Notes: generated by a model not told the origin, from the letters alone. 32,000 nucleotides of DNA from Nostoc sp. PCC 7120 = FACHB-418 (GCF_000009705.1 NC_003272.1:6330001-6362000); one strand, 5' to 3'; counted from the first letter of the stretch, positions 1 to 28,624 are shown. Numbers and translations are program-made.

Positions 1-65
1 CTATAAGGTCACTGTAAAGCTAGGTTATTTTTTTACATTATTGAATACAGGCAATTCACTCTGAC

Positions 66-1379
66 TTACTGGCTAGAGATTGGCAAAGTAATAATAAATT
101 TTGTTCCCTTACCCAAAGTTGACAAGCACTTAATTTTTCCATTGTGCTTATCCACAATAATTTGATGGGTGATGGCTAATCCTAGTCCAGTTCCCTTGCC
201 TACAGCCTTAGTTGTAAAAGATGGCTCAAAAATTCTGTCTTGCACCTCAGGAGGTATACCAAGAGCATTATCTTCAATGCAAATTGTCACACCTGCCCGC
301 TCCTGATCAACCGATGTAGTAATTGTAATTGTGTGAGGTTCAGAAACATTTATTTCCTGGTCTGAACATTTCTGATGGAGATCATCAAAGGCATCTATAG
401 CGTTGGCGATAATGTTCATAAATACCTGGTTAAGCTGCCCAGGATAGCAAGTGATTGGTGGCAAAGTACCATATTCTTTGATCACCTCGATTTTTGGGCG
501 ATCGCTTTGGTCTTTCAGGCGATGTTTCAGTAACATTAAGGTACTATTCATACCTTCATGAATCTGAAACTCTACCTTAGAGGAGATATCAGATCGGGCA
601 AAGGTTCGTAAAGAAAGGCTGATATCCTTCAGCCGATCAATCCCTTGGTGCATTGACCCCAAGATTTTTGGTAAATCTTCTGCTAAATACTCTAAGTCGA
701 TTTCTTCAACTAATTCTTCAATTTCCGGGTCTGAGTGTGATAATTTTTGCTGTTGCAGATGCACTAAACGAAGAATATCCTTGACATATTCCTCAATATG
801 AGAGCAATTGCCACTAATAAAACCAATTGGGTTATTAATCTCATGACCTATACCAGCCACAAGTTGTCCAAGGGTGGACATTTTCTCACTTTGGATGAGT
901 TGTATTTGGGTTTGCTTTAACTGTTGTATGGATTGAGTTAATTCTGCTGTCCGTTCTTGGACTTTTTGTTCTAGAGTACGGGTGAGATGGGATATTTTCA
1001 GGTGTAACTTTAATCGAGCAATAACTTCTTCATGTTGGAAGGGTTTGGTAATGTAGTCAACTGCACCAATTTCTAGTCCTTTGACTTTATCTGTAGCATC
1101 AGACAAGGCTGTCATGAAAATGACCGGAGTATTCTGAGTTATGGGATTGGCTTTCAATCTACGGCAAGTTTCAAATCCATCAATACCTGGCATCATGACA
1201 TCAAGGAGAATCAAATCAGGATGAGCATATTCTGTTTGTTCTAGCGCCGACTCTCCATCCGTTGCCATGAGAGCTTTCCAACCACATCCCTGAACTGCTT
1301 CTGATAAAACTTTCAGATTATTCGGGTTGTCATCTACTAAAAGGACATATGTTGGCTGTACAAGAGATTCGGTGATCAT
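66..1379 (-). CDS. Hybrid response-regulator/histidine kinase (N-terminal REC, coiled coil, HisKA, HATPase_c)
   Basis: 437-aa ORF. REC motifs: [29 protein letters not shown]-box: [13 protein letters not shown]-box: [12 protein letters not shown]-boxes: EDNALGIP and [10 protein letters not shown]. Its ATG overlaps the stop of the upstream kinase gene in an ATGA at 1376-1379. Confidence 0.9.
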
Positions 1380-4183
1380 GGATGCGACTCCGTTATGACA
1401 AATGATTTCAGGAACTGGCGAATTTTTGCGGTTTGGAAGTTGGTAGTAAGTTTACTCAACTCAGTGGCAAAGGGAGTTAGCTGACTATTATGCTGAATTA
1501 GCTCTCTAAGAATTCCCTCAATCGCTGGTATATCCCCCATCATGGATAGATGATAGAGTTGTTGCAAAACATCCTGTGATGGCAGAACCAATTCAGTAGG
1601 AGTTGTAGGCCCTGGTTGAGGAGATAAAGACAAAGATGCAGATGGCGCATAAATCCACTCGACTTGGAGTAGCGATCGCAGCGCATTGAATAGTTCATCA
1701 ATTTGTAAGGGCTTGGGCAAAAACGCTGTTGCTCCAGCCTGCAAACTCCGTTGGCGATTTTCCTCGAATACGCTGGCACTAGAGACAATGATGGGGATAG
1801 AACTAGTTTGTGGATTCTCTTGTAGCTGAACCATTAGCTCAAAGCCATCCATATTAGGCATAGCTAAATCAAGCAGAATCAAATCTGGGTGATGTTCATT
1901 GACCATCTGTAGTCCCTGTTTGCCGTCGCTTGCTTCTAGGGTTTGACAGCCAATTTCTTGTAGCAGACTGTTTAACATAGAACGGTGGTTGTCATCATCA
2001 TCGACAATCAAAATTTGCGGCGCGCTACCCTGAATACCAATGACTTTCTGGTGCATTGGGGCATAGGTCTGCCAATCATGGGAAATTGGTACTGGAAGTG
2101 TTACATCCAACCAGAAGATACTTCCTTCACCCAGACGACTCTGTACCTGAATTTGGCTACCCATTAATTCGGCAATTCTTTGACTGATGGCTAATCCTAA
2201 ACCAGTACCTTCAGATTGCCGTCTGCAATCACCCACTTGCTCAAAAGCTAAGAAGATTTTTTCCAGTTGCTCCGGGGACATACCCACGCCTGTATCTTCA
2301 ATCTGGAAACGAATTTTGGCAACAGAGGATTGCTGATTATCTTGATCTTGAGTGTCCAGTAACTCTACTTTAAAAGTCACTCCGCCGCTATCCGTAAATT
2401 TGACAGCATTGCCAAGTAAATTGATCAGCACTTGCCTGAGGCGCTTTTCATCCACCTCCATGACTGTTGGTAGGCGATCGCCCATAGAGACTTTGAATGC
2501 AATCCCCTTTTGTGCTGCTCGGATACTACAAATCTCGCTCACACCATGTAAGAAAGTTGGCAGATGTACATTAGCCACCACCAACTCTAATTTACGAGCT
2601 TCAATTTTTGACAAATCAAGAATGTCATTAATCAGTAGTAAAAGATGTGAGCCACATTGGTGAATAATGTTCACTCCCTCTAAGTCTTTCTCCCTCAAAT
2701 TGGGTGATACCTCTAGCACCTGAGCAAAACCAAGGATGCCATTCAGTGGTGTGCGTAGTTCGTGGCTCATATTAGCCAGAAACTCACTCTTGGCTTGGTT
2801 AGCAGCGTCGGCAGCTTGCTTGGCTTCTAAGAGTTCATGAGTCCGCTCTTGGACTTTTATCTCTAGGGTTTTGGAATAATCTAAAAGTTGACTATTAGCA
2901 ATTTCTAATTGCTGATTTGCTTCTTCCAACTTCTGCTGTTTATAGGCATTAGTTGTGGCAATCACACTAACAATGAAAGCTGCTAAAGGGGGTGTGACCG
3001 GAATCAAAACACCATGCAGAAACATTCCATAGCCACCTCCCAGAAATGCCCCACTGATGGATGTGGTTGTCCAAAGAATTTTTCCGCCTGGAATCCGTCG
3101 TCCACTGCGTGCGCTAGCTAACAACCAACTACCGCTAGAACCGATCACAGACCATAAAATAATCCAGCTTGCCATAAACAAGCCAGAAAAACCACGCAGA
3201 TTCGCTTTCCCTGTTCTTGCCCCTCGTACCAGTTGATGAGCAATATTGGCATGGATCACAACACCTGGTGTAGGTTTTTGAGCAGAAATCAAGGATGAGC
3301 TAAAAGGTGTACTAAAGAAATCGTTGGTACTGGCAGCAGTTGAACCGATAAAAACCATGCGATCGCGCATCAGTTCTGGAGGAATTTTCCCTGCCAACAC
3401 ATCACGCATGGTAACTGTGCGAAAGGCCGCTTCTGAGCCGTACCAGTTAAGTAAAATTTGATAGCCGCCCAAATCAGCATCCGTATAACCCGCACTTGAA
3501 TTTTGTAGTGGTAAGTGTATTTGCTTACCCAAACGAAACTTTTGCTGTTTGGCATCAACTGATTCTAAGCTGATTTTTTCGGCTTTTAGGTACTTGAGTG
3601 CGACAAGAGTTGCTAGTCCGGCTTTGATTTTGCCTTCTTCTTTGGTATCGACCGCAGTCAAGAGGGCGCGGCGCACATGGCGATCGCCATCCAACACCAA
3701 ATCAGCTAATCCTACTTGGTCATTTTTTTTCAGTTCAGGCGGCGGATTGACACGTTCACCAGTGATTTTCTCAACCCCAATCAAATTAGGTGTAGTGCGA
3801 AAAACTTCCGCGAGTTTTTCATACCCCTTACCTTCCGGTAAATCACGATAGAGATCCAAACCAATGGCACGAGGTTGTTGCGCTCGGATTTTTTCTAGTA
3901 ACTCTGCCAGTGACCAATCTGGAATCGGCCATTTACCAACCGATTGGATATCCTGTTCATCAATTGTGATAACGATGATTTCGTCAGCCATTGTATTGTG
4001 GGAACACTCCAAAAGGGTATTTGCTTCACACGAACGTAGTCGCACCCATTCATCACGAAGTTTCCACTCAAGCAAATTGAAAATACCCAACGATTGTCCG
4101 ACAATAATCGTTAAGGCAACACTAGGCGTAATAATCAAGACACTGCGAGTGCGCTGGATGAAAGCTTGGAATTTGCGCCACAT
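1376..4183 (-). CDS. CHASE2-domain sensor hybrid histidine kinase (TM, CHASE2, 3 TM, coiled coil, HisKA, HATPase_c, REC, C-terminal helical tail)
   Basis: 935-aa ORF. N-terminal TM helix followed by a CHASE2-type region ([20 protein letters not shown]...AIGLDLYRD...[10 protein letters not shown]). A hydrophobic block spans about aa 330-415. H-box: [16 protein letters not shown]-box: [11 protein letters not shown]-boxes: DTGVGM and [11 protein letters not shown]: [10 protein letters not shown]...[15 protein letters not shown]...KP. Confidence 0.9.
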
Positions 4184-4220
4184 AGTTCCGTCACACGCTT
4201 TAATTAAAATTGATGAGCAT

Positions 4221-4282
4221 TAGGGATAGGTAGGGATAGGGATTGGGTTTGAGGAATAAATTTTTCTAGTTCCCAATCCCTA
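4221..4282. repeat. Intercistronic G-rich decamer duplication plus 11-bp inverted repeat (hairpin)
   Basis: TAGGGATAGG occurs twice in tandem (4221-4240). TAGGGATTGGG (4237-4247) is the exact reverse complement of CCCAATCCCTA (4272-4282), with a 24-nt A/T-rich loop. It lies between the DUF928 stop (4290) and the CHASE2 kinase start (4183). Confidence 0.7.
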
Positions 4283-4289
4283 ATCTTGA

Positions 4290-5276
4290 TTAATTAGCAG
4301 ACGCTAATAACGGAGCTTTAACAATCTCCTTCAAGCTAACAGAAGAAAGAAGTTCTTCCCATTGCTTGAGGATAGTTGCATTCTTGGGTTGAGATGTGTG
4401 CAGGGTAGCCAGTGTTTCTACACAGTCATACCAAACGCCAGATTTGCCGAAAGCAGTTGCTCGCTTCAAGGCATCTCTCTGCTGCATTGCCGTTGCCAGT
4501 TCAGCAGTGGGTTGGATGCGCTGAATCCAACCATCAACATAAGGTGTACTAGGATTGAGTTTTCCATCCACCTTTAGTGCCAAAAACCACTGGTAGTTTT
4601 TCCCTAAGGCTAAAGCTGGTGCGTCTGCTGGTAATTTGACTCCCATGACCCCAGTTTTCCCAGCAACAGGAATGGTGGTTTGATACTGGGTATTGCCAGC
4701 TTCATCCTTGAGACTGAAGACAGCCTCTTCTGCATTAGTAGCAGGTATATACACCATAATGGTGGGACGCTCAGATACCGTTGTGCCATAGAAGCTTTGG
4801 GGTAAGAGTGCAATTAGGGCTGCTGGACCTGCTGCTCCCACAGTTGAAGGATTCAAGTAGTAAGTACCAACGCGAGAAGCTCCTCCACTTGCCTCTTGAG
4901 GTGCGCCTTTGTCAGAAGCGGGAGTAAAGAGTTCGCCTCTGGAAGCTCCTCCAGTTGCTTGTCTAGGAGCGGCATTGCGAGAGTTAGGTGTAAAGAGATT
5001 ACCTCTGGAAGCTCCTCCAGTTGCGTGCCTGGGAGCGGCATTGCGAGAGTTAGGTGTAAAGAGGTTGCCTCTGGAAGCTCCTCCAGTTGCGTGCCTGGGA
5101 GCGGCATTGCGAGAGTTAGGTGTAAAGAGATTACCTCTGGAAGCTCCTCCAGTTGCTTGTCTAGGAGCGCCGCTATCGATTGGTGGGGTAAAGGTTATAC
5201 CGTAGGCACTATTCCACATACCGCTAGTCATTAGAGCAATCAAGCCCAATGTACTAGCAAAATATCCAAGTCTCAT
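4290..5276 (-). CDS. Secreted DUF928-family protein with an N-terminal 22-aa tandem repeat array
   Basis: 328-aa ORF. Signal-peptide-like N-terminus (MRLGYFASTLGLIALMTSGMWNSAYG). It carries 4 full and 1 degenerate copies of APR(Q/H)ATGGASRGNLFTPNSRNA. The C-terminal about 190 aa (YYLNP...MVYIP...YQWFLALK...VDGWIQR) matches what I recall of DUF928. The family call is from memory only. Confidence 0.8.
   Translation of the reverse strand: MRLGYFASTLGLIALMTSGMWNSAYGITFTPPIDSGAPRQATGGASRGNLFTPNSRNAAPRHATGGASRGNLFTPNSRNAAPRHATGGASRGNLFTPNSRNAAPRQATGGASRGELFTPASDKGAPQEASGGASRVGTYYLNPSTVGAAGPAALIALLPQSFYGTTVSERPTIMVYIPATNAEEAVFSLKDEAGNTQYQTTIPVAGKTGVMGVKLPADAPALALGKNYQWFLALKVDGKLNPSTPYVDGWIQRIQPTAELATAMQQRDALKRATAFGKSGVWYDCVETLATLHTSQPKNATILKQWEELLSSVSLKEIVKAPLLASAN
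4872..5168. repeat. 66-nt coding tandem repeat (about 4.5 copies) inside the DUF928 gene
   Basis: GGAGCGGCATTGCGAGAGTTAGGTGTAAAGAG... recurs with a 66-nt period, for example near 4965, 5031 and 5097. This corresponds to aa 37-135 of the minus-strand protein. Central copies are nearly identical at the nucleotide level. Confidence 0.9.
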
Positions 5277-5464
5277 GATTCTATCCCTTGTTTGATGAAA
5301 GGTAATACTAAGTAGATTTATTCTGATTGCGGGAAGAAGCTTGTAAGGTCTCTTTAGCTACTAATCAAAGTGAAGAATAGCTGATACCAATATAAACCAA
5401 CTTTGGCTAAATATAGGTAAAAGATATTGCAAAGATTTTAATGCGTCTACGCATTATTACTTAA

Positions 5465-8020
5465 TCACAACCAGTTACCAACCAGAACGAAGGCAGACCA
5501 AAAGAAAGGATCTTGGAAATCAGTTTGGTGAATCAGGTTGATTTGGGCTTGCCTCAATGCTTCGGCTTTGGTGATTTTGGGCTTTCGTAGTTGGTCATAG
5601 AAGCGCGTCATCAGCATCTCAGCAGCTTTATCTTTAACGGGCCAAAGGGTGGCAATAGTTGAGCGAGCGCCGGATTTGACCGCTAAACCTGCCAGTCCCA
5701 GAACGGCGCGATCATCTCCAGTTGCAGTGTCGCAGGCACTAAGTACCAATAATTCGATCGCCTTTGATGAATCACCACTACGATTTTTGAGTAGTTCAGA
5801 CAAATCTTTAACATTCACTTGTCCATCCCAAGTCAGTAAGAAAGTATCTTCGATACGGGAACTGAACTGTCCGTGGGTAGCTAGGTGAACCACATCGGCA
5901 CGGCTAGACTTGATACGATCTGCTAGGGCTTGACTGGTGAATTTCTGATTCAACAGCATCGAAGAAGGTATTGTCTGAGAAATTTGCTTCACTTCTGATT
6001 CCACAGCAGGTAAGGCAGCAAAACCAGAGCGAGATTCGCTAATACCAGCGACGATCGCCTTAATTTTGTTTTGCTCCAGGGATTGAGCAGCCATTAGTTG
6101 CAACCCTGGTGAGAGAGCCACTGCATATTTCTCGATCAGATATTGCTGTCCATCGAATAAAGCGGCTATTGGTATATTCCGCAACTTTCCATCTAAAACA
6201 AACACTAGTGTTTTGGTATTTTTAAATGCTTGTCCTTCTTCTGCTGGACGAATCAGCCAATCATACACTTGTTGAGACAATCGCGCCCGAACTTGGGAAT
6301 CGGAAACAGGGTTGAGGGCTACTAACAAATTATCAAGAGTTTGTTCGATATCAGCTTGAGATTTACGGGTTACATAGTAACGCAGAGGCTTTCCCGCTTG
6401 GGAGAGAATCACCGCCAAGCGATCGCTGAGAATAATGGGATAAATAACTGTCGCAGAGGAGTCAACTTTGTCAATCTGCTGGGCTTTATCTAAACAAGCC
6501 TCGCGGAAAAAGTTATCAAGTTCGGCAATTTGTAACGATTCGATCAATTCACGGGCCTGCATTAAAGCAGTCTGGGTTGGTTGTTCTTCTAGAAGTAGAC
6601 CCACTAACTCCCGATAGACAGGCTCTACACTTTCGCGGAAAGAAAATTGAACATCCGGGTTAACTGCAACCATATCCCCCCGCAATGCTTTTAATGACTT
6701 AACTGCTTCTGTATAAGCTGTAATCGCTTTTGGGCGATCGCCCTGCTGCTTAAACAACTGTCCTACTTGCCATGCTGATTGAGCGATGATATCGTCAGCT
6801 TGGAGTTGACGGGCAATATTGAGGGATTTTTGGGCTACTTCCTTGGCTTCAGTCCACTGCTTTGTGCGACGATAGAGTTGTCCCCATTGATACAAAGCAT
6901 ACGCTTGGGCTGGAGAATCTTCAATCTGTTGTGCAGACTTAACAGTCAATGCCATCAGTTGCGCCAAATCTTTAATTGGTAAAACTTGGTCAGGTTTTTC
7001 CAAGCGATTCAATGTAGCCACAAAATTAATGGCTGCGTAAAGTGAGCTATGGCTGGGTGGTAGTTCCGACAACTTTTGTTGTAATTGAGGTGCTAGGGGA
7101 ACTGCATATTCTAGTTTGTCGTAATCTATCAATAATTTGAACCGAGCTAAACGCGCTTGCAAGGATTCATTTGGGTTCGTGGCTGCTTTTTCTGCGTCTT
7201 CAAAGTAATTTAATGCCACTTCTGGATCTTGGAAGTCAGAGGCAACTTTCCCCAGACTCGCAAGAATAGAACTTAAATGAGTTTTAGCGCCAATTTTATT
7301 AGCAGTGGCTAAACTTTGTTCTAAGATTAGCTGACTTTTATTATCACCAATCGCGTGTAAAGTTAAACCCAGCGATCGCAACCCACTCACTTTAACTTCC
7401 GAATCTGGCATTTGTTGGAGCTTTTGCGTTAATATCTCCAATTGTTGTTTCGAGCGGCGATAAAATCCCAAACTTTGTAAGGCTTGTGCTTGATTGATTT
7501 GACTACCCAAGCTGCCCATATTGTCGCCTGCTTGTTCATAATATTTTTGAGCTTGTTGCCAAATTTCTAGAGCGGTTTCAGCCTTGCCAGTACGTAATCG
7601 TAAATTTGCCTGAGTATTTAATATCTGCGCCCAGATAATTGCATCAACAGAAGGTTTAGCCGTTTGCAGAATTTTCACACTTTGCTCTATAGATTGTCTA
7701 GCAGTGTCCCACTGATTAAGTTCCTGTTGTGCTAACGATAAGTAACTCAAGCTGAGGGCTTCATTGGTGCGATCGCCCTGGATATGATATTTCTGTGCTG
7801 CCGTTTGCCATGTTGTAGCAGCTTCCGCAAAACGTCCTGCATGGTAAAGGTTTCGTCCTTGTTCTAACCCATTGGTAGCTTGAGGAGTGGATAATGACAC
7901 GTTGAGAGTTGTCTGTAACGGTATAGATGCTTTTGCAGGGGCGATGGTCACCGCTAAACACAAGCTCAGAATACTTAAACACAGATAAAGCCAAGGATTT
8001 TTTTTGATGGGGAAAATCAT
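5465..8020 (-). CDS. Signal-peptide TPR-repeat / CHAT-domain (caspase-like) protein
   Basis: 851-aa ORF. N-terminus MIFPIKKNPWLYLCLSILSLCLAVTIAPAKA is signal-peptide-like. About 450 aa of TPR-like helical repeats follow (recurrent A..Y/W..A...Y...G patterns). The C-terminal CHAT region has an intact His/Cys dyad context: VVHLATHGQF (His codon 5873-5875) and LLVLSACDTATG (Cys763, codon 5732-5734). Confidence 0.88.
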   Translation of the reverse strand: MIFPIKKNPWLYLCLSILSLCLAVTIAPAKASIPLQTTLNVSLSTPQATNGLEQGRNLYHAGRFAEAATTWQTAAQKYHIQGDRTNEALSLSYLSLAQQELNQWDTARQSIEQSVKILQTAKPSVDAIIWAQILNTQANLRLRTGKAETALEIWQQAQKYYEQAGDNMGSLGSQINQAQALQSLGFYRRSKQQLEILTQKLQQMPDSEVKVSGLRSLGLTLHAIGDNKSQLILEQSLATANKIGAKTHLSSILASLGKVASDFQDPEVALNYFEDAEKAATNPNESLQARLARFKLLIDYDKLEYAVPLAPQLQQKLSELPPSHSSLYAAINFVATLNRLEKPDQVLPIKDLAQLMALTVKSAQQIEDSPAQAYALYQWGQLYRRTKQWTEAKEVAQKSLNIARQLQADDIIAQSAWQVGQLFKQQGDRPKAITAYTEAVKSLKALRGDMVAVNPDVQFSFRESVEPVYRELVGLLLEEQPTQTALMQARELIESLQIAELDNFFREACLDKAQQIDKVDSSATVIYPIILSDRLAVILSQAGKPLRYYVTRKSQADIEQTLDNLLVALNPVSDSQVRARLSQQVYDWLIRPAEEGQAFKNTKTLVFVLDGKLRNIPIAALFDGQQYLIEKYAVALSPGLQLMAAQSLEQNKIKAIVAGISESRSGFAALPAVESEVKQISQTIPSSMLLNQKFTSQALADRIKSSRADVVHLATHGQFSSRIEDTFLLTWDGQVNVKDLSELLKNRSGDSSKAIELLVLSACDTATGDDRAVLGLAGLAVKSGARSTIATLWPVKDKAAEMLMTRFYDQLRKPKITKAEALRQAQINLIHQTDFQDPFFWSAFVLVGNWL

Positions 8021-8573
8021 AAAAATTACTGATAAATTTGCTGTTTAGAGGTTTCCATGAAACGATTCATCTTGCACACTTATATTGCCCAGTTATCACC
8101 GTGAACTATCAATGGAGACCTGCTTTTACCTTTGGGTAGCTAGTCAAATTCCTGTGGGGAACGGAAAATTCAAAATCAATCACCCCATGAATCAATCTGG
8201 AGTCTTGCATACTACTTTATTGTTGGTAAATTACTTCCACCTTGAGAAACGACAACACAGGTTAACAAAATATAGGGGGTATAAATCCCCGTTACAACAC
8301 GGAAAAAGCGAATTGCGAATTGCTTTAATGGTTGGTGTGAATAGGCAGGAGATTCATCTGCCATCAACTAAATTTTGCCGTCAACCTTAGAGGATGTTTG
8401 AAAAGTCAAGCGAAATACCTGATCTTGAGAGTGCTTGACTCTTTTGAATATTAGATAAATCTTTCAGCAGAAAGAAACGGTAAGTCAAACTAATTCTTAA
8501 GAATGATGAACAGATTAGTTAAGATTTGGAATTATGGCAACAACACCGCCACAAAATATGAGGCAAAAAATAT

Positions 8574-8789
8574 ATGAGATCGCCAGAAATTCAAACAACA
8601 GAAAATACAATTGATCAGATTAATCCTCAAAGCTCCTACAAAGCTGAATCTATCACTCAGGTAGGAAGAAATAATAGAATAACTGATCCAAATTTACCCT
8701 ATAAACGATTACTTTACATCTCGGCTTTGGTGATATTGGTGGCTTTCCTATTTGTTGCTGCCATTTACTACGGAGTTATCAACCCTTAA
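8574..8789 (+). CDS. Hypothetical small tail-anchored membrane protein (71 aa)
   Basis: ORF with a polar N-terminal half and one C-terminal hydrophobic helix (LLYISALVILVAFLFVAAIYYGVI). GAGG lies about 11 nt upstream of the ATG. No recognisable family, so it may not be expressed. Confidence 0.3.
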   Translation: MRSPEIQTTENTIDQINPQSSYKAESITQVGRNNRITDPNLPYKRLLYISALVILVAFLFVAAIYYGVINP

Positions 8790-8923
8790 TACTAATTCTC
8801 GATGAAGTTGCGCTTAATTATTTTAGAACTAGCAAATTATCATCAGAAATCCTCCGCGCTAACCACCCTGCGGTTTCGCTCTTAGCGTTCTCGTAGAGTA
8901 GCCGAAGCGTCTACAGCGTTAAA

Positions 8924-9046
8924 AAGGCTAAAATTTAGTTAAGAAGAATAGTAGGTTGGATTGAGAGGCAGCGAAACCCAACAAAGCCTTGATAACGTTG
9001 GGTTTTGTTCCTCAACCCAACTTACGCCAGTTTTAGTTTTAGCCTT
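8924..9046. repeat. Nested palindromic MITE-like dispersed repeat (Nostoc-type GTTGGGTT...AACCCAAC units)
   Basis: Unit A is 8951-8982 (GTAGGTTGGATTGAGAGGCAGCGAAACCCAAC). Unit B is 8997-9025 (GTTGGGTTTTGTTCCTCAACCCAACTTAC). They are inverted copies of one about 30-nt unit. Outer arms AAGGCTAAAA (8924-8933) and TTTTAGCCTT (9037-9046) are also reverse complements. The unit resembles a repeat family I recall as abundant in Nostoc/Anabaena genomes. Confidence 0.65.
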
Positions 9047-9585
9047 AACTGAACCGTATTGCGGTATGAGCTATTTTCACTTTAAACCCAGCAATTAGTT
9101 TTCCCAGCCTACTTTGTTAAGAATGGTGCAATTGATTTACTTAACCAATCTCATCAATAATCCAGTATTAAATCAACATAGCCTATTGAATTATATGTAA
9201 TTTGCAGCTTAATATTTTTCATCAAGAAATTCAAATTTTGTTAAAGATTAAGCTCATCCTAAAACAGAAATGATATAGGCTACATGGAGCATCAGCAATG
9301 TGTAGAAAACTACAAACTCATTTAGTAATGAGAATCCGTCTCTAGTTAGATGGTAGCAATGGTAATTAATTTGTTTATTAATTCTAGGCTCATGAATTGC
9401 ATCATACTGCCTCAAAATGTAAGTTCAAAAATTAAGCGTGTTCAATCCTAATAATCCCCAGCCTTGGCTATTAGTATTGACCTCCATTTGTAGGCTGAAA
9501 GGATGTTGATTCAATTGCAAAAATTTGCTGGCTCATGAGAACTAGCAATTTGGATTAGCGTTTCAGGAGGATATGACTAGAATAC

Positions 9586-11814
9586 ATGGCTACAAAATAT
9601 CCTAAATTTAGCCGGGATCTGGCTCAAGATCCGACGACACGTCGAATTTGGTATGCGATCGCCACAGGAAATGACTTTGAAAGTCATGATGGCATGACCG
9701 AGGAAAATCTCTATCAAAAGATTTTCGCCACTCACTTCGGTCATGTTGCCATCATTTTCTTGTGGGCATCAAGTCTGTTGTTCCATGTTGCCTGGCAAGG
9801 TAACTTTGAACAGTGGATTAAAGATCCGCTCCATATTCGCCCCATTGCCCATGCAATTTGGGACCCCCACTTTGGTAAACCAGCCATAGAAGCTTTTAGC
9901 CAAGGTGGTGCTAACTATCCCGTGAATATTGCTTACTCTGGTGTTTATCACTGGTGGTATACCATCGGGATGCGGACGAATAACGACCTCTACCAGGGTT
10001 CAGTTTTCCTGTTGCTGTTAGCAGCCTTATTCCTGTTCGCAGGTTGGCTACACTTGCAACCCAAGTTCCGTCCTAGTTTGACTTGGTTTAAGAGTGCTGA
10101 ACCTCGTCTGAATCACCACTTAGCTGGTTTGTTTGGCGTTAGCTCCTTGGCTTGGGCTGGTCATTTGATTCACGTCGCCATCCCCGAATCTCGTGGGGTT
10201 CATGTGGGCTGGAGAAACTTTCTCACCACTTTGCCTCATCCAGCAGGTTTAACACCATTCTGGACAGGTAACTGGGGTGTTTACGCCCAAAATGCAGATA
10301 CGACCGGGCATATTTTTGGCACATCCCAAGGTGCAGGAACCGCTATTTTGACTTTTTTGGGTGGTTTCCATCCCCAAACAGAGTCTTTATGGTTGACTGA
10401 TATGGCGCATCACCATCTAGCGATCGCTGTCATCTTTATCATCGCCGGGCATATGTACCGGACTAACTTCGGAATTGGTCACAGCATCAAAGAGATGCTT
10501 AACGCCAAACAATTCTTTGGTATCCGCACTGAAGGTCAGTTCAACTTACCCCATCAAGGGTTATACGACACATACAACAACTCTCTACACTTCCAGCTGT
10601 CCATACACTTGGCAGCATTAGGGACTGCATTATCGTTAGTGGCGCAACATATGTACTCGCTGCCGCCTTACGCCTTCATAGCTAAGGACTACACAACACA
10701 AGCGGCGCTATATACCCATCACCAGTACATTGCTGGGTTCTTGATGATTGGTGCGTTTGCCCATGCTGGCATTTTCTGGATACGAGATTACGACCCAGAG
10801 CAAAATCAAGGTAATGTCCTTGACCGCGTATTGAAGCATAAAGAAGCGATTATCTCTCACCTAAGTTGGGTGTCGCTTTTCTTAGGTTTCCATACCCTGG
10901 GAATATACGTTCACAACGATGTTGTAGTTGCCTTTGGCACTCCAGAAAAGCAAATTTTGATTGAGCCAGTGTTTGCTCAATTCATCCAGGCTGCTCATGG
11001 CAAACTGCTTTATGGGATGGATACTTTATTATCTAACCCAGATAGTATTGCTTATACAGCTTGGCCAAACCACGCTAACGTCTGGTTGCCCAACTGGCTA
11101 GACGCGATTAACTCTGGCACTAACTCTTTATTCTTGACCATTGGCCCTGGTGATTTCTTGGTACACCATGCGATCGCTCTCGGCTTGCATACCACCACCT
11201 TGATTTGTGTTAAGGGTGCGTTGGATGCCCGTGGTACTAAGCTGATGCCCGATAAGAAAGACTTCGGCTTTACCTTCCCCTGTGATGGGCCTGGACGGGG
11301 TGGTACTTGCCAAACCTCCTCTTGGGAACAGTCTTTCTATCTGGCTCTCTTCTGGATGTTGAATCTCCTGGGCTGGGTAACTTTTTACTGGCACTGGAAG
11401 CATCTAGGAGTCTGGCAAGGTAATGTTGCTCAGTTTAATGAAAACTCTACATACCTGATGGGTTGGTTCCGTGATTACCTGTGGGCTAACTCTGCTCAGT
11501 TAATTAACGGTTACAATCCCTACGGCACAAATAATTTGTCTGTCTGGGCTTGGATGTTCCTCTTTGGACACCTAGTTTGGGCTACCGGCTTCATGTTCCT
11601 GATTAGCTGGCGTGGCTACTGGCAAGAGTTAATTGAAACTCTGGTTTGGGCGCACGAACGCACGCCATTAGCTAACTTAGTTCGTTGGAAAGATAAGCCT
11701 GTAGCTTTATCTATTGTCCAAGGTTGGTTAGTCGGTTTAGCTCACTTTACTGTTGGTTACATCCTTACCTATGCAGCATTCCTCATCGCCTCAACGGCTG
11801 GTAAATTCGGTTAA
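9586..11814 (+). CDS. psaB: Photosystem I P700 chlorophyll a apoprotein A2 paralogue (orphan PsaB, PsaB2-like)
   Basis: 742-aa ORF, near full-length colinear with PsaB as I recall it. N-terminus: [25 protein letters not shown] loop: [12 protein letters not shown]. Also conserved: [27 protein letters not shown] (P700 His, A0 Met, quinone Trp) and the C-terminal [10 protein letters not shown]. No psaA lies upstream. AGGAGG sits at 9565-9570. Confidence 0.95.
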
Positions 11815-21777: not shown

Positions 21778-23610
21778 TTAGTAACTATAATTAAAATACC
21801 TAGTTGCAGATAACTTCCTCAGTGACATTCGCTCCAGATGCTGCAAAATCTGGGCAACTAGTCGTGAGTCTATGACAGACTTATTTACCCAATCATCAGC
21901 CCCAACAGCAAATATTTTTTCAAAGGTATTGACATTAAAATTATTAACGAGAAACAGCACTGGTAAAAATTGCCAGTAAGGATCATTACGTACTACCTGG
22001 CAAAGTTCAATCCCATTAATATGCGGTATTTCTAAATCTAGAATTAGCAAATCAGGAGAAAATTCTATCAGAGTATCCCAAAAATATTGCGGCTCTTTAA
22101 GAGCTTTTACGGTAATTCCTAAAGCTTCTAGATATCGATGTAGAAAATTTAATAAATGGAGATTATCATCTACAATCATGATTTTCGTTTTAGTAATCCC
22201 AGTTTGTGGTAATACTTGAATAACTGACTCAAAAATTTGGCTAGAAGGCAGATATTTTGGCAAAAAAGCACAGCCGCCAGCACGGGCAACTTCTACACGC
22301 TTAATAAAATTATTTTGATTAGTAAGTATTAAAATCGGTATTTGAGGCGATAGCTGAGATAATTCTCTTAGTAAACTTAGACTATCTTCTTCAATATCAA
22401 TATCCAGTATTACCACATCAGGATTTAAAGATGCAATTATAGTTCTACTACCTGCAATATCATGAGTAATTTTAACTTTTATTCCCAGGTTTACAGCTTC
22501 ATCTAGCAATCCGTTAAAAACTTGCTGATCATTGCTAATCACCAATAGCAGATTTTGATGTTGCTCCAAGGAAGTTTTTTCTAGATTCCTGGGCAACGCC
22601 GTTAGCAGTTTATCTAAATAAAAACATTTGGCTTGGGTGATCAAATTTTGATTCTGAAATAAATCTTCTATTTTTTTAGCTAATAATGAAGCGTGTGGAA
22701 AACCAAAACTCCCCAACGAACCAACCAATTTGTGAGCTTCTTGCTCTGCCTCTTGCTGCATTTGCAGGTCAAGCGTACCTTTTCTTAAAGCATTCACCGC
22801 TTCTTTAAAAAATGCAATCCGTGAACCAACCTTTGCTTTGAAATTTTCTCGCTCTTGAGCAATGGCTGTGAGTAGAATTTGCTGCTGTGTTAAATTTATT
22901 TCTGGCTCAGTTATCAGACAATTTGCTTCATGAGCTAAAGCTTTCAAGCGATAACCCATCCCGTAAACAGTTTCGATAAAAGCGTAGTTAGCACCTGCTG
23001 CTTGTAATTTCTGTCGTAAACTTTTGATATGAGATTTAATCGTGTTTTCTTCTGGTGGATCTTTTTCCGCACTCCAAAGTTTTTCTACAATTGCACCCCG
23101 GCTAAAAGTACGTTGGTTGTTGCGTAAGAAAAGCTCTAAAATACTAAATTCTTTGGCTGTTAAATTTAGTGGCTTGTCTGCATAAGTTACCTCACAACTA
23201 CTAGGGTCAAGGCGTAAGCTTCCCCATGCTAAAACAGGAGGTAAAGAAGTATTTCCTCGACGTAATAAAGCACGAATACGAGCTGATAACTCTTGAAAAT
23301 CAAATGGTTTGACTACATAATCATCTGCTCCGGTATCTAAACCTAGAATTTTATCAGTTTGAGAATCTTTTGCTGTTAACAGCAGAATCAGCATTTGATA
23401 GCCTGCTTGCCGTAATTGTCGACAAAGACTGATACCATCCAGTTTCGGTAGAACAACATCTAACAAAATTAGTTCATAGTTACAAACACTCACCAATTCC
23501 CAAGCAACTTCACCATCAGCAGCAATATCAACTGCATAATGTTGTTTAGTCAGAGTTGTTGCCATAGCTTGAGCCAGCAGATCATCGTCTTCAACTAAAA
23601 GAATTCTCAT
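21778..23610 (-). CDS. Multidomain response regulator: REC, OmpR-type winged helix, HPt, REC-like, REC
   Basis: 610-aa ORF.
- REC1: ILLVEDDD, ILLDVVLPKLDG (D51), LTAKD, KP.
- wHTH: aa about 125-223, LTAKEFSILELF...VYGMGYRLK.
- HPt-like motif: EAHKLVGSLGSFGF (His293, codon 22732-22734).
- REC-like 2: aa about 355-465, VVILDID, ILILT, LPK, but it lacks the N-terminal acidic pair.
- REC3: aa about 476-595, IMIVDDN, LLILDLEIP, VNK, with the Thr/Ser position replaced (FLVNN). Confidence 0.85.
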   Translation of the reverse strand: MRILLVEDDDLLAQAMATTLTKQHYAVDIAADGEVAWELVSVCNYELILLDVVLPKLDGISLCRQLRQAGYQMLILLLTAKDSQTDKILGLDTGADDYVVKPFDFQELSARIRALLRRGNTSLPPVLAWGSLRLDPSSCEVTYADKPLNLTAKEFSILELFLRNNQRTFSRGAIVEKLWSAEKDPPEENTIKSHIKSLRQKLQAAGANYAFIETVYGMGYRLKALAHEANCLITEPEINLTQQQILLTAIAQERENFKAKVGSRIAFFKEAVNALRKGTLDLQMQQEAEQEAHKLVGSLGSFGFPHASLLAKKIEDLFQNQNLITQAKCFYLDKLLTALPRNLEKTSLEQHQNLLLVISNDQQVFNGLLDEAVNLGIKVKITHDIAGSRTIIASLNPDVVILDIDIEEDSLSLLRELSQLSPQIPILILTNQNNFIKRVEVARAGGCAFLPKYLPSSQIFESVIQVLPQTGITKTKIMIVDDNLHLLNFLHRYLEALGITVKALKEPQYFWDTLIEFSPDLLILDLEIPHINGIELCQVVRNDPYWQFLPVLFLVNNFNVNTFEKIFAVGADDWVNKSVIDSRLVAQILQHLERMSLRKLSATRYFNYSY

Positions 23611-24142: not shown

Positions 24143-26074
24143 GTGTCTTCATTAAGGACTTTTGAAGATAAGCAGCCGCAAATCCGGACTTCGCCTAGTT
24201 TAGAGTTTTGGAAAGGGGTGGGTCAAATTACCGGCTGTACCCTTTTATCAATCACCACGCTGACAAGTTCTGTACTAGCTGGGGGACTGCTTGGTTTAGC
24301 TATTAGTTTCCGTGATTTACCAAGCGTTAGAACAATCAGGAATTTTGTACCTGCTGAAACAACTTATATCTATGACATTAAAGGCAGGCTATTGGCAAGT
24401 ATTCATGGGGAAGTTAATCGTGAAGTAGTCCCTTTAAAGAAAATTTCTCCTCACCTGAAACGAGCAGTATTAGCCAGCGAGGATACTTCTTTTTACCATC
24501 ACCACGGTATCGATCCTGTTGGAATAGGGCGTGCTTTAGTGGTTAACTTAGAAGCTGGGGAAGTGCAGGAAGGTGGCTCTACTCTCACCATGCAATTGGT
24601 GAAAAACTTGTTTTTATCTCAAGAGCGTACCTTTACACGGAAAATAGCAGAAGCAGTGCTGGCAATTCGTTTAGAACAAGTTCTCAGTAAGGATGAGATA
24701 TTGGATCTGTATCTCAATCAAGTTTATTGGGGTGATAACAATTATGGTGTCCAAATGGCTGCGCGTTATTACTTTAATAAGTCAGCCGCAAATTTAAACT
24801 TAGCTGAATCAGCTATGATGGCAGGATTACTTCCTGCACCAGAAAATTTCAGCCCGTTTATTAACCTGGAATTAGCAAAACAAAAGCAGAAAGAAGTGCT
24901 GTTGAGAATGCTGGAATTAAACTGGATTAGCCAGCAGGATTATAATCAGGCTCTTAAGCAAAAGATTCAACTGAATAACAAGAGAACTTTAGAAGGTAGT
25001 GCTGCACCTTATATAACTAATAGCGTAGCGCAAGAGTTGGTGAGAAGGTTCGGACGTGATGTCCTGCTTAAAGGTGGACTGCGGGTGCAAACAACCATTG
25101 ATGCTCAATTCCAAATGATGGCCAACAAAACGGTCAAGCGTTGGCATCAAAGGCTAAAACGTCAAGGGCTAAGAAATAATCAAATAGCTTTAGTAGCTAT
25201 TGACCCGCGTACCCATTTTATTAAAGCTTTAGTTGGTGGCGTGGATGCTAAAACTAGCGAGTTCAACCGAGCAACTCAAGCACGCCGTCAGCCAGGGTCT
25301 GCTTTTAAGCCGTTTGTTTACTATGCTGCTTTCGCTAGCGGCAAATTCACACCTAATACAATAGTGCAGGATACTCCAGTCAGGTATCGTGATGGCAATG
25401 GTTGGTACTCTCCACGCAACTACGATAATAGTTTTATGGGAGCAATACCAATTCGCACAGCTTTATCACTATCTCGGAATATTCCGGCAATCAAACTTGG
25501 CAAAGCTGTAGGTCTAAATAGAGTTATTGAAACTTCTCGGACTTTAGGTATTACAAGTCCGATGGAACCTGTAACTTCTTTGCCTTTAGGTGCAATTGGT
25601 GTAACGCCTGTGGAAATGGCTAGTGCCTACGCTACTTTGGCAAATTATGGCTGGCAATCACCGACTACATTAATCATGCGTGTCAGTGATAGTAATGGCA
25701 ATGTTTTGATAGACAATACACCTAAGCCTCGTTTAGTTTTAAATCCTTGGGCATCTGCATCTGTGATTGATGTGATGCAGTCTGTAATTAATAACGGTAC
25801 AGGTAGAGCGGCGGCTATAGGTCGTCCGGCGGCTGGTAAGACAGGCACAACTTCATCAGAAAGGGATGTTTGGTTTGTGGGTACTGTACCACAATTGACA
25901 ACTGCGATCTGGGTAGGAAGAGACGATAACAAAAGATTAGGTTACGGCGCAACAGGTGGTGGCACGGTTGCTCCTATATGGCGCGATTTTATGCAAAATG
26001 CGCTTAAAAACTTACCAGTCGAGAACTTCAAGCGACCTTCTAATTTTCCTCGCCCTCGGCCGAATAAAAAATAA
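24143..26074 (+). CDS. Class A penicillin-binding protein (GT51 transglycosylase + transpeptidase), paralogue 1
   Basis: 643-aa ORF with a GTG start; there is no in-frame ATG before the TM helix. GT51 motifs: EDTSFYHHHGID, GGSTLTMQLVKN, RKIAEAVLA. Transpeptidase motifs: SAFKP (SxxK), SRN, KTGTT. Confidence 0.9.
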   Translation: MSSLRTFEDKQPQIRTSPSLEFWKGVGQITGCTLLSITTLTSSVLAGGLLGLAISFRDLPSVRTIRNFVPAETTYIYDIKGRLLASIHGEVNREVVPLKKISPHLKRAVLASEDTSFYHHHGIDPVGIGRALVVNLEAGEVQEGGSTLTMQLVKNLFLSQERTFTRKIAEAVLAIRLEQVLSKDEILDLYLNQVYWGDNNYGVQMAARYYFNKSAANLNLAESAMMAGLLPAPENFSPFINLELAKQKQKEVLLRMLELNWISQQDYNQALKQKIQLNNKRTLEGSAAPYITNSVAQELVRRFGRDVLLKGGLRVQTTIDAQFQMMANKTVKRWHQRLKRQGLRNNQIALVAIDPRTHFIKALVGGVDAKTSEFNRATQARRQPGSAFKPFVYYAAFASGKFTPNTIVQDTPVRYRDGNGWYSPRNYDNSFMGAIPIRTALSLSRNIPAIKLGKAVGLNRVIETSRTLGITSPMEPVTSLPLGAIGVTPVEMASAYATLANYGWQSPTTLIMRVSDSNGNVLIDNTPKPRLVLNPWASASVIDVMQSVINNGTGRAAAIGRPAAGKTGTTSSERDVWFVGTVPQLTTAIWVGRDDNKRLGYGATGGGTVAPIWRDFMQNALKNLPVENFKRPSNFPRPRPNKK

Positions 26075-26692: not shown

Positions 26693-28624
26693 GTGTCTTC
26701 ATCAGAAAATATTGAACAGGAACAACTACTAATTCAGCCTTCACCTAATTTTGAGTTTTGGAGAAAAGTAGGTTTAGTTACAGGTGGTACTCTCTTATCA
26801 ATTAATATGTTGGCAATTTCTATTGTGACAGGAGGGTTAGTTGGCTTATTTATTAGTTTCTATAATTTGCCACAGCTTAGACAAATACGCAATTTTGTAC
26901 CAGCAGAAACAACATATATATACGACATCAAAGGTAAGCTTTTGGTAGGGTTGCATGGAGAGGCTAATAGAAAATTTGTGTCCTTAGATCAAATTTCTCC
27001 ACATCTAAAAAGAGCAGTCTTAGCTATTGAAGATAGTTATTTTTACAATCATCACGGTATCGACCCCGGAGGTATAGGACGTGCTGCGTTAGTTAATTGG
27101 GCATCAGGTACTGTGAAAGAGGGTGGTTCTACCATCACTATGCAGTTGGTAAAAAATCTGTTTTTATCTCGCGATCGCGCTTTAAGCCGCAAAATAGCAG
27201 AGGCTGTATTAGCAATTCGCCTAGAGCGTATTCTCAATAAAGATCAAATTTTAGAACTGTATCTTAATCAAGTTTACTGGGGTCATAATAACTATGGTGT
27301 GCAAACAGCAGCCCAGTCTTACTTCAATAAATCAGCACAAGATTTAACTTTGGCTGAGTCAGCTTTGATGGCTGGCCTTATCCAAGCTCCAGAAAAATTT
27401 AGTCCTTTTGTGGACATGAATTTAGCTAGACAAAAGCAAAGGCAAGTCTTGAGAAGGATGCGGGAATTAAAATGGATTACGAAACAAGAATATGATGATG
27501 CTCTTCGACAACAGATTCAATTAGGCAAAATTAAATCTTTTAAAGCTAGTGTTTTTCCTTATGTCACTAATGCCGTATCACAGGAATTAATTGAAAAATT
27601 TGGGCGTGATGCTGTACTCAAAGGTGGAATGCGGGTGCAAACAACAGTATCTAGTGATTTACAAATAATTGCAGAAGAAACTGTAAAAAAATGGCACAAA
27701 ACTCTTAAAGAACGAGGGTTAAAAAACAATCAAATTGCTTTAGTAGCAATAGACCCACGTACTCAATTTGTCAAAACCTTAGTAGGTGGTGTTGATTCGC
27801 AAAAGAGCGAATTTAACCGTGCAACTCAAGCCCAGCGTCAACCTGGGTCTGCTTTTAAGTCGTTCGTCTACTATACTGCTTTTGCCAGTGGCAAGTTTAC
27901 GCCCGATACAAAGGTACTAGATTCTCCAGTCAGCTATCCTGACGGGGATAAAACTTACTCTCCACGCAACTACGATAATACCTTTAAGGGTGCAATGCCA
28001 ATTCGTACTGCTTTAGCACTTTCTCGCAACGTCCCTACGGTGAAGCTTGGTAAATCTGTAGGAATGAATAATGTGATCAAAACTTGCCGTACCTTGGGAA
28101 TTACTAGTCAAATGGAACCTGTAAGTTCTTTACCATTAGGCGCGATTGGTGTTACGCCACTAGAGATGGCTAGTGCCTATGCAACTTTTGCTAATTATGG
28201 TTGGTACTCTTCTCCAACACTCATTACCCGTGTGACTAATAGTAGTGGTGATTTATTATTAGATAATACCCCTAAGCCTCGTCAGGTTCTTGACCCTTGG
28301 GCATCGGCCGCCATTTTAGATGTGTTGCAATCAGCAGTGAAGGAGGGAACCGGTAGAGGTGCGGCTTTAAACCGTCCAGTTGCTGGCAAAACTGGTACAA
28401 CCTCTTCAGAAAGAGATATCTGGTTCATAGGTACAGTACCACAGTTAACAACAGCCATTTGGGTAGGTAGAGATGATAACGGACAATTAGCTAGGGGTGC
28501 AACAGGCGGAGGTATGGTTGCTCCCATTTGGCGTGATTTTATGCAGAAGGCGCTTCACGATGTACCAGTCGAGAAATTCAAGCCACCTTCTAATTTTCCT
28601 CGCCCTCAGCCAAAGAAGAAATAA
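26693..28624 (+). CDS. Class A penicillin-binding protein (GT51 transglycosylase + transpeptidase), paralogue 2
   Basis: 643-aa ORF with a GTG start. An in-frame TAA lies at 26675-26677 and no ATG intervenes. GT51 motifs: EDSYFYNHHGID, GGSTITMQLVKN, RKIAEAVLA. Transpeptidase motifs: SAFKS, SRN, KTGTT. It is colinear with paralogue 1 without visible indels. Confidence 0.9.
   Translation: MSSSENIEQEQLLIQPSPNFEFWRKVGLVTGGTLLSINMLAISIVTGGLVGLFISFYNLPQLRQIRNFVPAETTYIYDIKGKLLVGLHGEANRKFVSLDQISPHLKRAVLAIEDSYFYNHHGIDPGGIGRAALVNWASGTVKEGGSTITMQLVKNLFLSRDRALSRKIAEAVLAIRLERILNKDQILELYLNQVYWGHNNYGVQTAAQSYFNKSAQDLTLAESALMAGLIQAPEKFSPFVDMNLARQKQRQVLRRMRELKWITKQEYDDALRQQIQLGKIKSFKASVFPYVTNAVSQELIEKFGRDAVLKGGMRVQTTVSSDLQIIAEETVKKWHKTLKERGLKNNQIALVAIDPRTQFVKTLVGGVDSQKSEFNRATQAQRQPGSAFKSFVYYTAFASGKFTPDTKVLDSPVSYPDGDKTYSPRNYDNTFKGAMPIRTALALSRNVPTVKLGKSVGMNNVIKTCRTLGITSQMEPVSSLPLGAIGVTPLEMASAYATFANYGWYSSPTLITRVTNSSGDLLLDNTPKPRQVLDPWASAAILDVLQSAVKEGTGRGAALNRPVAGKTGTTSSERDIWFIGTVPQLTTAIWVGRDDNGQLARGATGGGMVAPIWRDFMQKALHDVPVEKFKPPSNFPRPQPKKK

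Follow-up and report, generated by a model that had tools for sequence, protein, structure and literature searches.

A TPR-CHAT, DUF928 and CHASE2 gene block of cyanobacteria as a candidate extracytoplasmic signalling module

Introduction

What does a CHASE2 domain read? These widespread sensor domains steer the kinases, cyclases and cyclic di-GMP enzymes that lie behind motility, biofilm formation and symbiosis, and their ligands were described as still unknown as recently as 2023 (PMC10581220). The question is raised again by a locus in Nostoc sp. PCC 7120. Here, in a stretch of 32,000 nucleotides (NC_003272.1:6330001-6362000, called the window below), positions 66-8020 of the minus strand carry four co-directional open reading frames. 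They encode a TPR-CHAT protein, a DUF928 protein, a hybrid histidine kinase that contains a CHASE2 domain, and a second histidine kinase that contains a receiver (REC) domain.

An original prediction, made by a model from the sequence of the window, read these genes as a single system, in which a CHAT protease captures and processes the DUF928 protein outside of the cytoplasm, and CHASE2 senses the outcome. The parts of this proposal turn out to differ in strength. The module exists, is conserved and has no description in the literature searched, and that its genes constitute an extracytoplasmic signalling module is well supported. The DUF928 protein is likely to be a dedicated periplasmic partner of the CHASE2 ectodomain, one that sets the activity of the hybrid kinase. 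What the protease does is a more tentative matter.

The four genes are inherited as a unit

When one genome per species was scanned, the DUF928 protein had 190 relatives. The 80 best of their loci were taken with 10 kb on either side, and neighbours were called by using the proteins of the window as phmmer queries against six-frame open reading frames. The scan covered the orthologous subfamily of DUF928; it was supplemented by look-ups of eight divergent DUF928 proteins and by a reverse search that began from CHASE2.

Within the orthologous subfamily, gene order hardly changes. Of 78 testable loci, 76 have CHAT as the immediate upstream neighbour of DUF928, the CHASE2 kinase gene lies directly downstream of DUF928 in 74 of 75, and the REC-kinase gene comes next after the CHASE2 kinase gene without exception (73/73). 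The closest genome found, that of Nostoc parmelioides FACHB-3921, is 96% identical in protein and 93.6% identical in nucleotide sequence across the block. Its nucleotide homology to the window is, however, limited to window positions 50-8062 (L004:4561-12570), with both flanks unrelated. The genomic surroundings of the block thus differ between two close relatives. Trichormus azollae, too, has a CHAT orthologue on record.

These four genes are inherited as a unit, and the block is retained while its surroundings change. Gene-neighbourhood analysis was one of the checks that the original prediction had proposed for itself; the block is kept in about 75 other species genomes, far above chance.

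Contigs with DUF928/CHASE2 genes of the cyanobacterial type also appear in bins of metagenome-assembled genomes labelled Actinomycetota (L074, L086/L087) and Acetobacteraceae (L071). These labels most likely reflect contamination in binning, not horizontal transfer.

The association outlasts changes in gene order

More divergent loci were approached from two sides. On the DUF928 side, the contig positions were traced for eight DUF928 proteins that share 40-51% identity with the query. A CHASE2 gene directly follows DUF928 in seven of these eight lineages, and its output varies, being a hybrid kinase with a REC-kinase in five and a PAS-adenylate/guanylate cyclase in two. A TPR-CHAT gene is found in the flank of five of the eight loci (in one, it follows the REC-kinase gene instead of preceding DUF928). 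Four of the loci have TpsA-type genes, which belong to two-partner secretion, and two have ShlB.

On the CHASE2 side, the window's CHASE2 region was compared by tblastn with the PLSDB plasmids, and eight cyanobacterial loci, 27-41% identical to it, were read by their annotation, with unannotated open reading frames checked by Pfam. DUF928 is adjacent in four of these (two more have weak candidates), six have CHAT within 8 kb, four have FHA or two-partner secretion genes, and two have an Omp85-type gene. Of the eight, one has no DUF928, CHAT, FHA/two-partner secretion or Omp85-type gene. Thus, a neighbourhood that the original prediction had offered, of DUF928, CHAT and CHASE2 genes often accompanied by two-partner secretion genes, is recovered from both directions.

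The order of the genes in these loci is not fixed. One variant runs DUF928, CHASE2 hybrid kinase, REC-kinase, CHAT; another runs two-partner secretion genes, CHAT, DUF928, CHASE2-PAS-cyclase; a recurrent third runs response regulator, CHASE2, DUF928, CHAT (convergent), FHA. In three distinct arrangements, DUF928 has CHAT as well as CHASE2 for a neighbour, and its place between the two in several gene orders fits a role as their link. The association, in other words, outlasts both the shuffling of genes and the swap of a kinase for a cyclase. If one supposes a genome of ~7000 genes with some tens of CHASE2 or CHAT genes, adjacency by chance is estimated at well under 1% per gene. Repeated independent adjacencies are therefore far beyond chance. 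The tightest and most general of the pairs is DUF928 with CHASE2, which qualifies the earlier model.

Only one published mention of DUF928 beside CHASE2 was found. It concerns a WD40/CHASE2/DUF928 cluster on pNPUN01 of N. punctiforme, which was treated as species-specific, without recognition of a general module (PMC5587647). This cluster resembles that in the window in that DUF928 lies next to CHASE2 and CHAT domains are present. It differs in where those domains stand. In pNPUN01, CHAT (residues 92-410) is fused to a transmembrane-CHASE2 region (residues 460-784) in one protein (L098:5654-8227), and the DUF928 gene comes after it. The fused CHAT domain precedes the first transmembrane helix and has no signal sequence, and is therefore placed in the cytoplasm. 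The fusion is itself preceded by a second CHAT protein (WD40-TPR-CHAT, with a hydrophobic N-terminus) and by a trypco2 protein.

A probable protein partner for CHASE2

Is DUF928 the only kind of protein to hold this position? In Variovorax, Burkholderia thailandensis and Leisingera, at each of the three loci inspected, the gene of a FecR-domain protein immediately precedes the CHASE2 gene, with the two abutting. These FecR-domain genes are on plasmids or chromids (L100:5576-6871, L101:5482-6846 and L102:6306-6830). Their products have a hydrophobic, signal-type N-terminus in two loci of the three, the genes stand behind a response regulator gene in two of the three, and the CHASE2 output is a kinase or a cyclase.

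The FecR-domain protein thus shares with cyanobacterial DUF928 both the slot upstream of CHASE2 and the predicted compartment. The proteobacterial loci differ in having no CHAT or two-partner secretion genes, and FecR is not detectably homologous to DUF928. A FecR-domain protein in the slot of DUF928 therefore suggests that, as a general rule, CHASE2 domains come with a partner in the periplasm. The pairing of FecR with CHASE2 was not found described in the literature searched. Homology between the two partners was considered and rejected (hhalign of the DUF928 profile against the FecR proteins, probability 0.3%).

CHASE2 receptors whose input has been studied are limited to CyaK, CyaD1 and CyaD2 of Sinorhizobium meliloti, cyclases that respond to a proteinaceous signal via a separate envelope protein, NsrA (PMC7529298, PMC13001267). 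There, as is proposed here, an inner-membrane CHASE2 receptor receives a protein signal through a separate protein of the envelope. The S. meliloti pathway differs in its adenylate cyclase output and in its partner, which is large and outer-membrane-associated; DUF928 and CHAT are not reported there. By analogy, DUF928, FecR and NsrA together support the view that CHASE2 domains read a protein partner. This, in turn, would give an orphan CHASE2 domain a candidate partner, and the experimentalist a testable hypothesis of a protein, not a small molecule.

Three domains predicted in one compartment

A partnership of this kind requires, of course, that the partners meet. Signal peptides and transmembrane segments were assigned by hydropathy and classical hand criteria. 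The TPR-CHAT protein (5465-8020, minus strand as for the whole block; 851 residues by its open reading frame) opens with MIFPIKKNPW-LYLCLSILSLCLAVTIA-PAKA↓S, where the arrow marks the predicted cleavage. By these criteria, this is a classical Sec signal (residues 1-31, nucleotides 7928-8020), with a basic n-region (K6 and K7), a hydrophobic core of 17 residues, and the ending A-K-A↓S. A signal-like N-terminus is kept in orthologues and in one divergent paralogue.

The DUF928 protein (4290-5276, 328 residues) opens with MRLGYFASTLGLIALMTSGMWNSAYG↓ITFTPP, a plausible signal (residues 1-26, nucleotides 5199-5276) with a weaker hydrophobic core and the ending A-Y-G↓I-T-F-T-P-P. In its orthologues, the cleavage site is typically A-x-A↓V-T-F-T-P-P, and the mature protein would therefore begin exactly at the first unit of the motif array described below. 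In the CHASE2 hybrid kinase (1376-4183, 935 residues), the CHASE2 domain (residues 23-349, nucleotides 3137-4117; Pfam E=7e-64) is enclosed by a first transmembrane segment at residues 16-34 and a hydrophobic block at residues ~329-409, and is predicted to be periplasmic. Hydropathy finds no transmembrane segment in the REC-kinase.

An independent hint comes from cysteine. Members of the DUF928 family may have a pair of these residues, one just past the motif and one in the β-sandwich (W…C). In rough pattern matching across 150 family representatives, 65 have both, 52 have neither and 33 are mixed. Such co-variation agrees with a disulfide and thus with a compartment that is oxidising. It also suggests that, in most members, a disulfide may tie the motif-proximal segment to the domain. 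The subfamily to which the DUF928 protein of the window belongs has lost both cysteines.

Thus, the features that had been named at the outset, a signal peptide on CHAT, another on DUF928 and a CHASE2 domain between transmembrane helices, are each borne out, although that of DUF928 is the weaker of the two signals. Since each protein carries fitting features, it is reasonable to expect that the CHAT, DUF928 and CHASE2 parts would meet outside of the cytoplasm.

The DUF928 protein: an array and a predicted binding fold

The DUF928 family, which comprises 4461 clusters at 50% identity (E<=1e-3), is essentially unstudied; in the literature searched, a single paper touches on it, in passing. In the protein from the window, the DUF928 domain (residues 131-323, nucleotides 4308-4886; Pfam PF06051, E=1e-58) follows five tandem motif units of 22 residues (residues 27-136, nucleotides 4869-5198). 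The sequence GGASR recurs in these at residues 43-47, 65-69, 87-91, 109-113 and 131-135, and the label of a repeat protein that DUF928 had been given is apt. At the level of DNA, the array is seen as a 66-bp unit in 3.7 copies with 92% identity.

Copy number varies among orthologues from 3 to 7, with protein lengths stepping by 22. The orthologue set contains 426 motif units, with a period of 22 in 329 of 343 spacings. Within a unit, F, T, P and then P, Q, A, T/S, G, G, A, S, R and G are near-invariant; the six positions that separate T-P from A-P are variable. The array elaborates an N-terminal motif that is found family-wide, F-x-P-P…P-x-Q-A-T-G-G-A-S-R-G, a feature defined in this analysis. 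Across the diverse family, most members have a single copy of the form F-x-P-P…P-x-x-T-x-G-G-A/G-S/T-R after the signal peptide, and a minority have 2-8. A strict pattern detects one copy or more in at least 98 of 150 diverse representatives.

Modelling by AlphaFold2 (AF2) gave a seven-strand β-sandwich (residues 163-253) followed by four helices (residues 258-312), with a predicted local confidence (pLDDT) of ~88-93; the N-terminal array was modelled with low confidence. The best Foldseek match of the domain is the C-terminal domain of MtxA from a magnetotactic bacterium (4Z29, E=2e-5), followed by carbohydrate-binding, FN3 and Ig-like modules. An Ig-like sandwich with helices, as modelled, suggests a binding module and not an enzyme. 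For its part, a constrained short motif on a flexible N-terminus is consistent with the kind of element that a TPR groove or a protease cleft recognises. Were the proposed module to be correct, it would supply a first function for a family of >4000 sequence clusters.

The TPR-CHAT protein

The CHAT domain (residues 580-849, nucleotides 5474-6283; Pfam E=5.6e-63), a member by profile of a clan-CD family of caspase-fold peptidases, was originally predicted to have an intact His/Cys context, with C763 as its cysteine. Both motifs are present. His716 (nucleotides 5873-5875) lies in HLATHG (residues 712-717) and Cys763 (nucleotides 5732-5734) in LSACDT (residues 760-765), and the two residues are invariant in 82 of 82 aligned sequences, including those from loci without two-partner secretion genes. 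A dyad conserved to this degree suggests that the enzyme is probably active.

Ahead of this domain are ~10 TPR-like helical repeats (residues ~50-445, nucleotides 6686-7873), supported by a TPR_12 match of Pfam in the protein and by AF2, which modelled the TPR array confidently from a shallow alignment of sequences that are 77-84% identical. Foldseek of the model returned TPR matches only (LGN/Pins, OGT, Ctr9), with a separase first appearing at rank 49. The TPR part is most similar to TPRs that bind peptides, for example those of LGN/Pins and kinesin light chain.

Nature has combined these two parts elsewhere. In Csx29, a CHAT caspase-fold domain that bears a His/Cys dyad comes after a TPR array, which gates the entry of a protein substrate. 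That protein works in the cytoplasm, in complex with gRAMP/Cas7-11, and RNA activates it. The TPR-CHAT architecture with its dyad is thus common to the protein in the window and to type III-E Craspase, a likeness that might be taken to favour a role in conflict or cell death. The window's CHAT protein, in contrast, bears a Sec signal, and there are no cas genes with it. If the module is as proposed, an extracytoplasmic bacterial relative of the caspases would gain a role.

How the module might work

The hypothesis that best joins these parts has several steps. The Ig-like/helical domain of DUF928 would dock on or near CHASE2, in the role of a co-receptor or of a tethered inhibitor or ligand. 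Its array, (F-T-P-x6-P-x-Q-A-T-G-G-A-S-R-G)n, would be a linear element for docking and cleavage, held by the TPR superhelix of the CHAT protein. His716 and Cys763 would then cut the array, the simplest site being just behind the invariant Arg, and this cut, by removing or freeing part of DUF928, would switch the CHASE2 kinase. The soluble REC-kinase, translationally coupled to the hybrid kinase, would receive phosphate from it on its REC domain and relay to an unlinked regulator. The wiring to two-partner secretion in most relatives makes the cue likely to be an event of secretion or of the cell surface, and not a small diffusible molecule.

For the last of these steps, the parts of the kinases are as follows. 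The CHASE2 kinase has a canonical H-box (H474 in HELRTP), with HisKA and HATPase_c domains, and a REC domain (residues 724-835) with the DD…D pattern and a probable acceptor at ~D772; a tail of ~100 residues without an assigned domain follows. The REC-kinase (66-1379, 437 residues) comprises REC (residues 12-123, D60), a HisKA-like H-box HEINNP (H179) and HATPase_c (residues 315-434). The pairing of the two kinases in 73 of 73 loci suggests that the first may control the second through its receiver. Pfam detects no Hpt domain in the tail of the CHASE2 kinase or in the block. The "two-kinase phosphorelay" of the original prediction is thus a reading of domain order alone, and the earlier model should be qualified to that extent.

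The best functional analogy is with CpxA, CpxP and DegP of E. coli. There, a small secreted accessory governs the periplasmic face of a sensor kinase, and an envelope protease removes the accessory. DUF928 would correspond to the accessory, CHAT to the protease, and the CHASE2 kinase to the kinase. No component is homologous, however. The sensor domain and the fold of the accessory differ, the protease would be a cysteine protease of clan CD and not a serine protease of the HtrA type, and Cpx has no counterpart to the link to two-partner secretion or to the second REC-kinase. In kind, therefore, the module resembles, by analogy, the Cpx-like control of a sensor kinase by an accessory and a protease, built from other parts and tied to type Vb secretion.

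That the block serves as a conserved cyanobacterial module for envelope sensing, and does so by all of these steps, falls a little short of an even chance. The step at which CHAT binds and cleaves the motif array, thereby gating the kinase, is more doubtful than this, and is proposed tentatively from the features of the sequences.

A number of observations weigh against the mechanism. Three of the eight divergent lineages (L086/87, L092, L094) have a DUF928-CHASE2 pair with no CHAT inside 10 kb, and one divergent locus has CHAT and DUF928 without CHASE2, so CHAT is not an obligate neighbour. The cytoplasmic CHAT of the pNPUN01 fusion implies that CHAT can also act downstream of CHASE2, as an output. 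The signal peptides rest on hand criteria and not on a trained predictor. The AF2 model of the CHAT domain is unusable, with pLDDT <50 (25-45 at residues 630-800), and a profile search of PDB sequences returned TPR proteins only, with no solved CHAT structure. The conserved block has no response regulator with an output domain. DUF928 repeat number does not correlate with the number of TpsA genes (rho -0.11). Last, the TpsA-like proteins, with a Gly/Arg motif of their own, are an equally plausible substrate for CHAT on the evidence of their sequences.

Two-partner secretion and other explanations

This last point leads to the most serious of the alternatives. In the orthologous loci, TpsA-like genes lie within 10 kb upstream of CHAT in 61 of 75, adjoining CHAT in 36. 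They number one to four in tandem and encode proteins of ~820-850 residues with an N-terminal two-partner secretion domain (PF05860). A TpsB of the ShlB/FhaC type (POTRA_2 plus ShlB) is found in at least 21 of 80 loci, where it stands at the outermost end of the 10 kb analysed, and is for this reason probably under-counted. The ancestral layout was therefore TpsB-TpsA(n)-CHAT-DUF928-CHASE2 kinase-REC-kinase. The window falls in the minority (14 of 75) that have no two-partner secretion genes adjacent; both tblastn and Pfam find no TpsA or TpsB gene or relic in its 32 kb, including the 1.5 kb upstream of CHAT, and the absence of a ShlB/FhaC-type partner had been correctly called.

The TpsA-like proteins share a C-terminal module, …Q-Q-I-A-T-G-C…S-F-V-A-T-G-R-G-G-V-P-Q-N-P…W-S-D-x-R-D…L-T-C-A-A, with two conserved cysteines. 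It is present in 97 of 99 orthologues and recognisable in six of six distant TpsA proteins associated with the cluster. Genes that carry it include L003:4500-6968 and others in L005 and L020. Its V-A-T-G-R-G-G-V-P bears a loose resemblance to the DUF928 motif Q-A-T-G-G-A-S-R-G, but the stretch is too short, and its order too different, for homology to be claimed; the likeness serves as a lead.

Maturation of a TpsA protein by a protease has a precedent. In two-partner secretion by FhaB/FhaC of Bordetella, SphB1, a subtilisin autotransporter, matures FhaB. Most relatives of the block, though not the window, likewise have TpsB/TpsA genes beside an exported protease. They differ from Bordetella in that their TpsA is short (~820-850 residues), has a C-terminal module flanked by cysteines, and is coupled to a sensor kinase.

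Under this alternative, CHAT would process or release TpsA-like exoproteins at their C-terminal module, as SphB1 does FhaB, while DUF928, as a co-sensor, and CHASE2 would monitor secretion or the state of the surface; the TpsA and TpsB of the window's genome would be encoded elsewhere. The gene neighbourhoods and the shared module just described speak for it, as does Pseudanabaena ABRG5-3, which has CHAT, two-partner secretion and CHASE2 genes without an annotated DUF928. Secreted clan-CD peptidases that process surface proteins are, moreover, a known theme (PMC3482391). However, the window and 14 of 75 loci keep the block and its invariant dyad with no TpsA nearby, and one CHAT-DUF928 pair has neither a two-partner secretion gene nor a CHASE2 gene in 10 kb. 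Further, the constrained, copy-number-variable array of DUF928 is left unexplained. Maturation of TpsA is rated as unlikely, though as a contender to be taken seriously.

A second alternative concerns the array. Here, the array would be a polyprotein precursor of ~22-residue peptides, G-x-L-F-T-P-x6-P-x-Q-A-T-G-G-A-S-R, excised by CHAT with cuts after the invariant Arg and sensed by CHASE2. If true, this would provide a first defined class of ligand for CHASE2, and a caspase-processed signal, tunable through copy number, for communication at the level of the filament in cyanobacteria. Such peptides are improbable.

Third, the kinase might simply be next door to its regulon. Two-component genes frequently adjoin their targets, and the co-directional genes here could form a single operon, no strong internal terminator having been found. 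CHASE2 would then sense an unrelated cue, such as a small molecule or the state of the envelope, with CHAT, DUF928 and TpsA as the regulated targets. But the conserved block lacks a DNA-binding regulator, and the association holds where the output is a cyclase and where a shuffled or convergent gene order breaks co-transcription. There is a CHAT-CHASE2 protein fusion, and the FecR-domain family in the same slot in proteobacteria argues for a physical partner. A mere regulon is improbable.

Finally, although caspase-CHASE2 fusions have been discussed in the context of apoptosis and immunity (PMC8195603) and the pNPUN01 relative joins a WD40-TPR-CHAT protein, a trypco2 protein and a CHAT-CHASE2 fusion, it is highly improbable that TPR-CHAT is a caspase-like effector of conflict or cell death (of the Craspase/Csx29 or STAND/EACC caspase type) triggered by CHASE2, since the block and window have no cas, STAND or toxin genes, the Sec-type signal on CHAT is conserved, and the locus is, unlike patchy defence islands, stable and vertically conserved in ~190 species genomes and the CHAT orthologue of T. 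azollae. An anti-phage defence reading by PADLOC was also rejected, its matches being trivial REC and TPR similarities.

The preferred reading thus remains that of DUF928 as the partner of CHASE2, with cleavage by CHAT as its less certain part. The block is easily manipulated genetically in strains of Nostoc or Anabaena.

Layout of the block

The domains that had been named for the block are each matched by Pfam, at full length and with high scores: PF12770 (CHAT) with 213.5 bits against a cut-off of 24 (profile positions 2-289 of 289), PF06051 (DUF928) with 198.6 bits against 26 (positions 2-184 of 184), and PF05226 (CHASE2) with 216 bits against 26.3 (residues 23-349). NCBIfam has no model that matches the DUF928 protein, and its generic and hybrid-kinase matches to the two kinases are all sub-threshold.

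The gaps between genes also agree with those first given, by coordinates and by sequence. CHAT and DUF928 are separated by 188 nucleotides (5277-5464), DUF928 and the CHASE2 kinase by 106 nucleotides (4184-4289), and the start of the REC-kinase gene overlaps the stop of the CHASE2 kinase gene by 4 nucleotides (ATGA, 1376-1379). Promoter and terminator scans of the block, including the 188-nucleotide gap, found nothing above chance, and an Rfam search of the same region found no family.

The 106-nucleotide gap holds, on the minus strand and right after the stop codon of DUF928, a stem-loop of 10-13 bp (GGGAUUGGG…CCCAAUCCC) with an RNA folding energy of -22.8 kcal/mol (z=-2.8 against shuffles). 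It is not called a terminator because no U-tract stands behind it. It could attenuate read-through to the kinase genes or stabilise the DUF928 message.

Other genes in the window

Upstream of CHAT, the 1.5-kb gap at 8021-9585 (GC content ~0.37-0.39) has no open reading frame of >101 residues, no Rfam match and no relic of two-partner secretion. Beyond it lies a full-length psaB (9586-11814, plus strand; PsaA_PsaB, 1269 bits), alone, with no psaA upstream. This is probably an extra psaB paralogue.

Three further signalling genes lie in the window, outside of the conserved block: a 610-residue regulator with REC, Trans_reg_C, Hpt and REC domains (21778-23610, minus strand), a DUF4118-PAS histidine kinase (28746-30425, minus strand) and a single-domain receiver (30590-30961, plus strand). 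The window also encodes SLH and PRC-barrel proteins and ion transporters. Two class A penicillin-binding proteins (Transgly plus Transpeptidase; 24143-26074 and 26693-28624, both on the plus strand), each of 643 residues, are 69% identical without gaps and, being also of equal length, are taken to be a tandem duplication.

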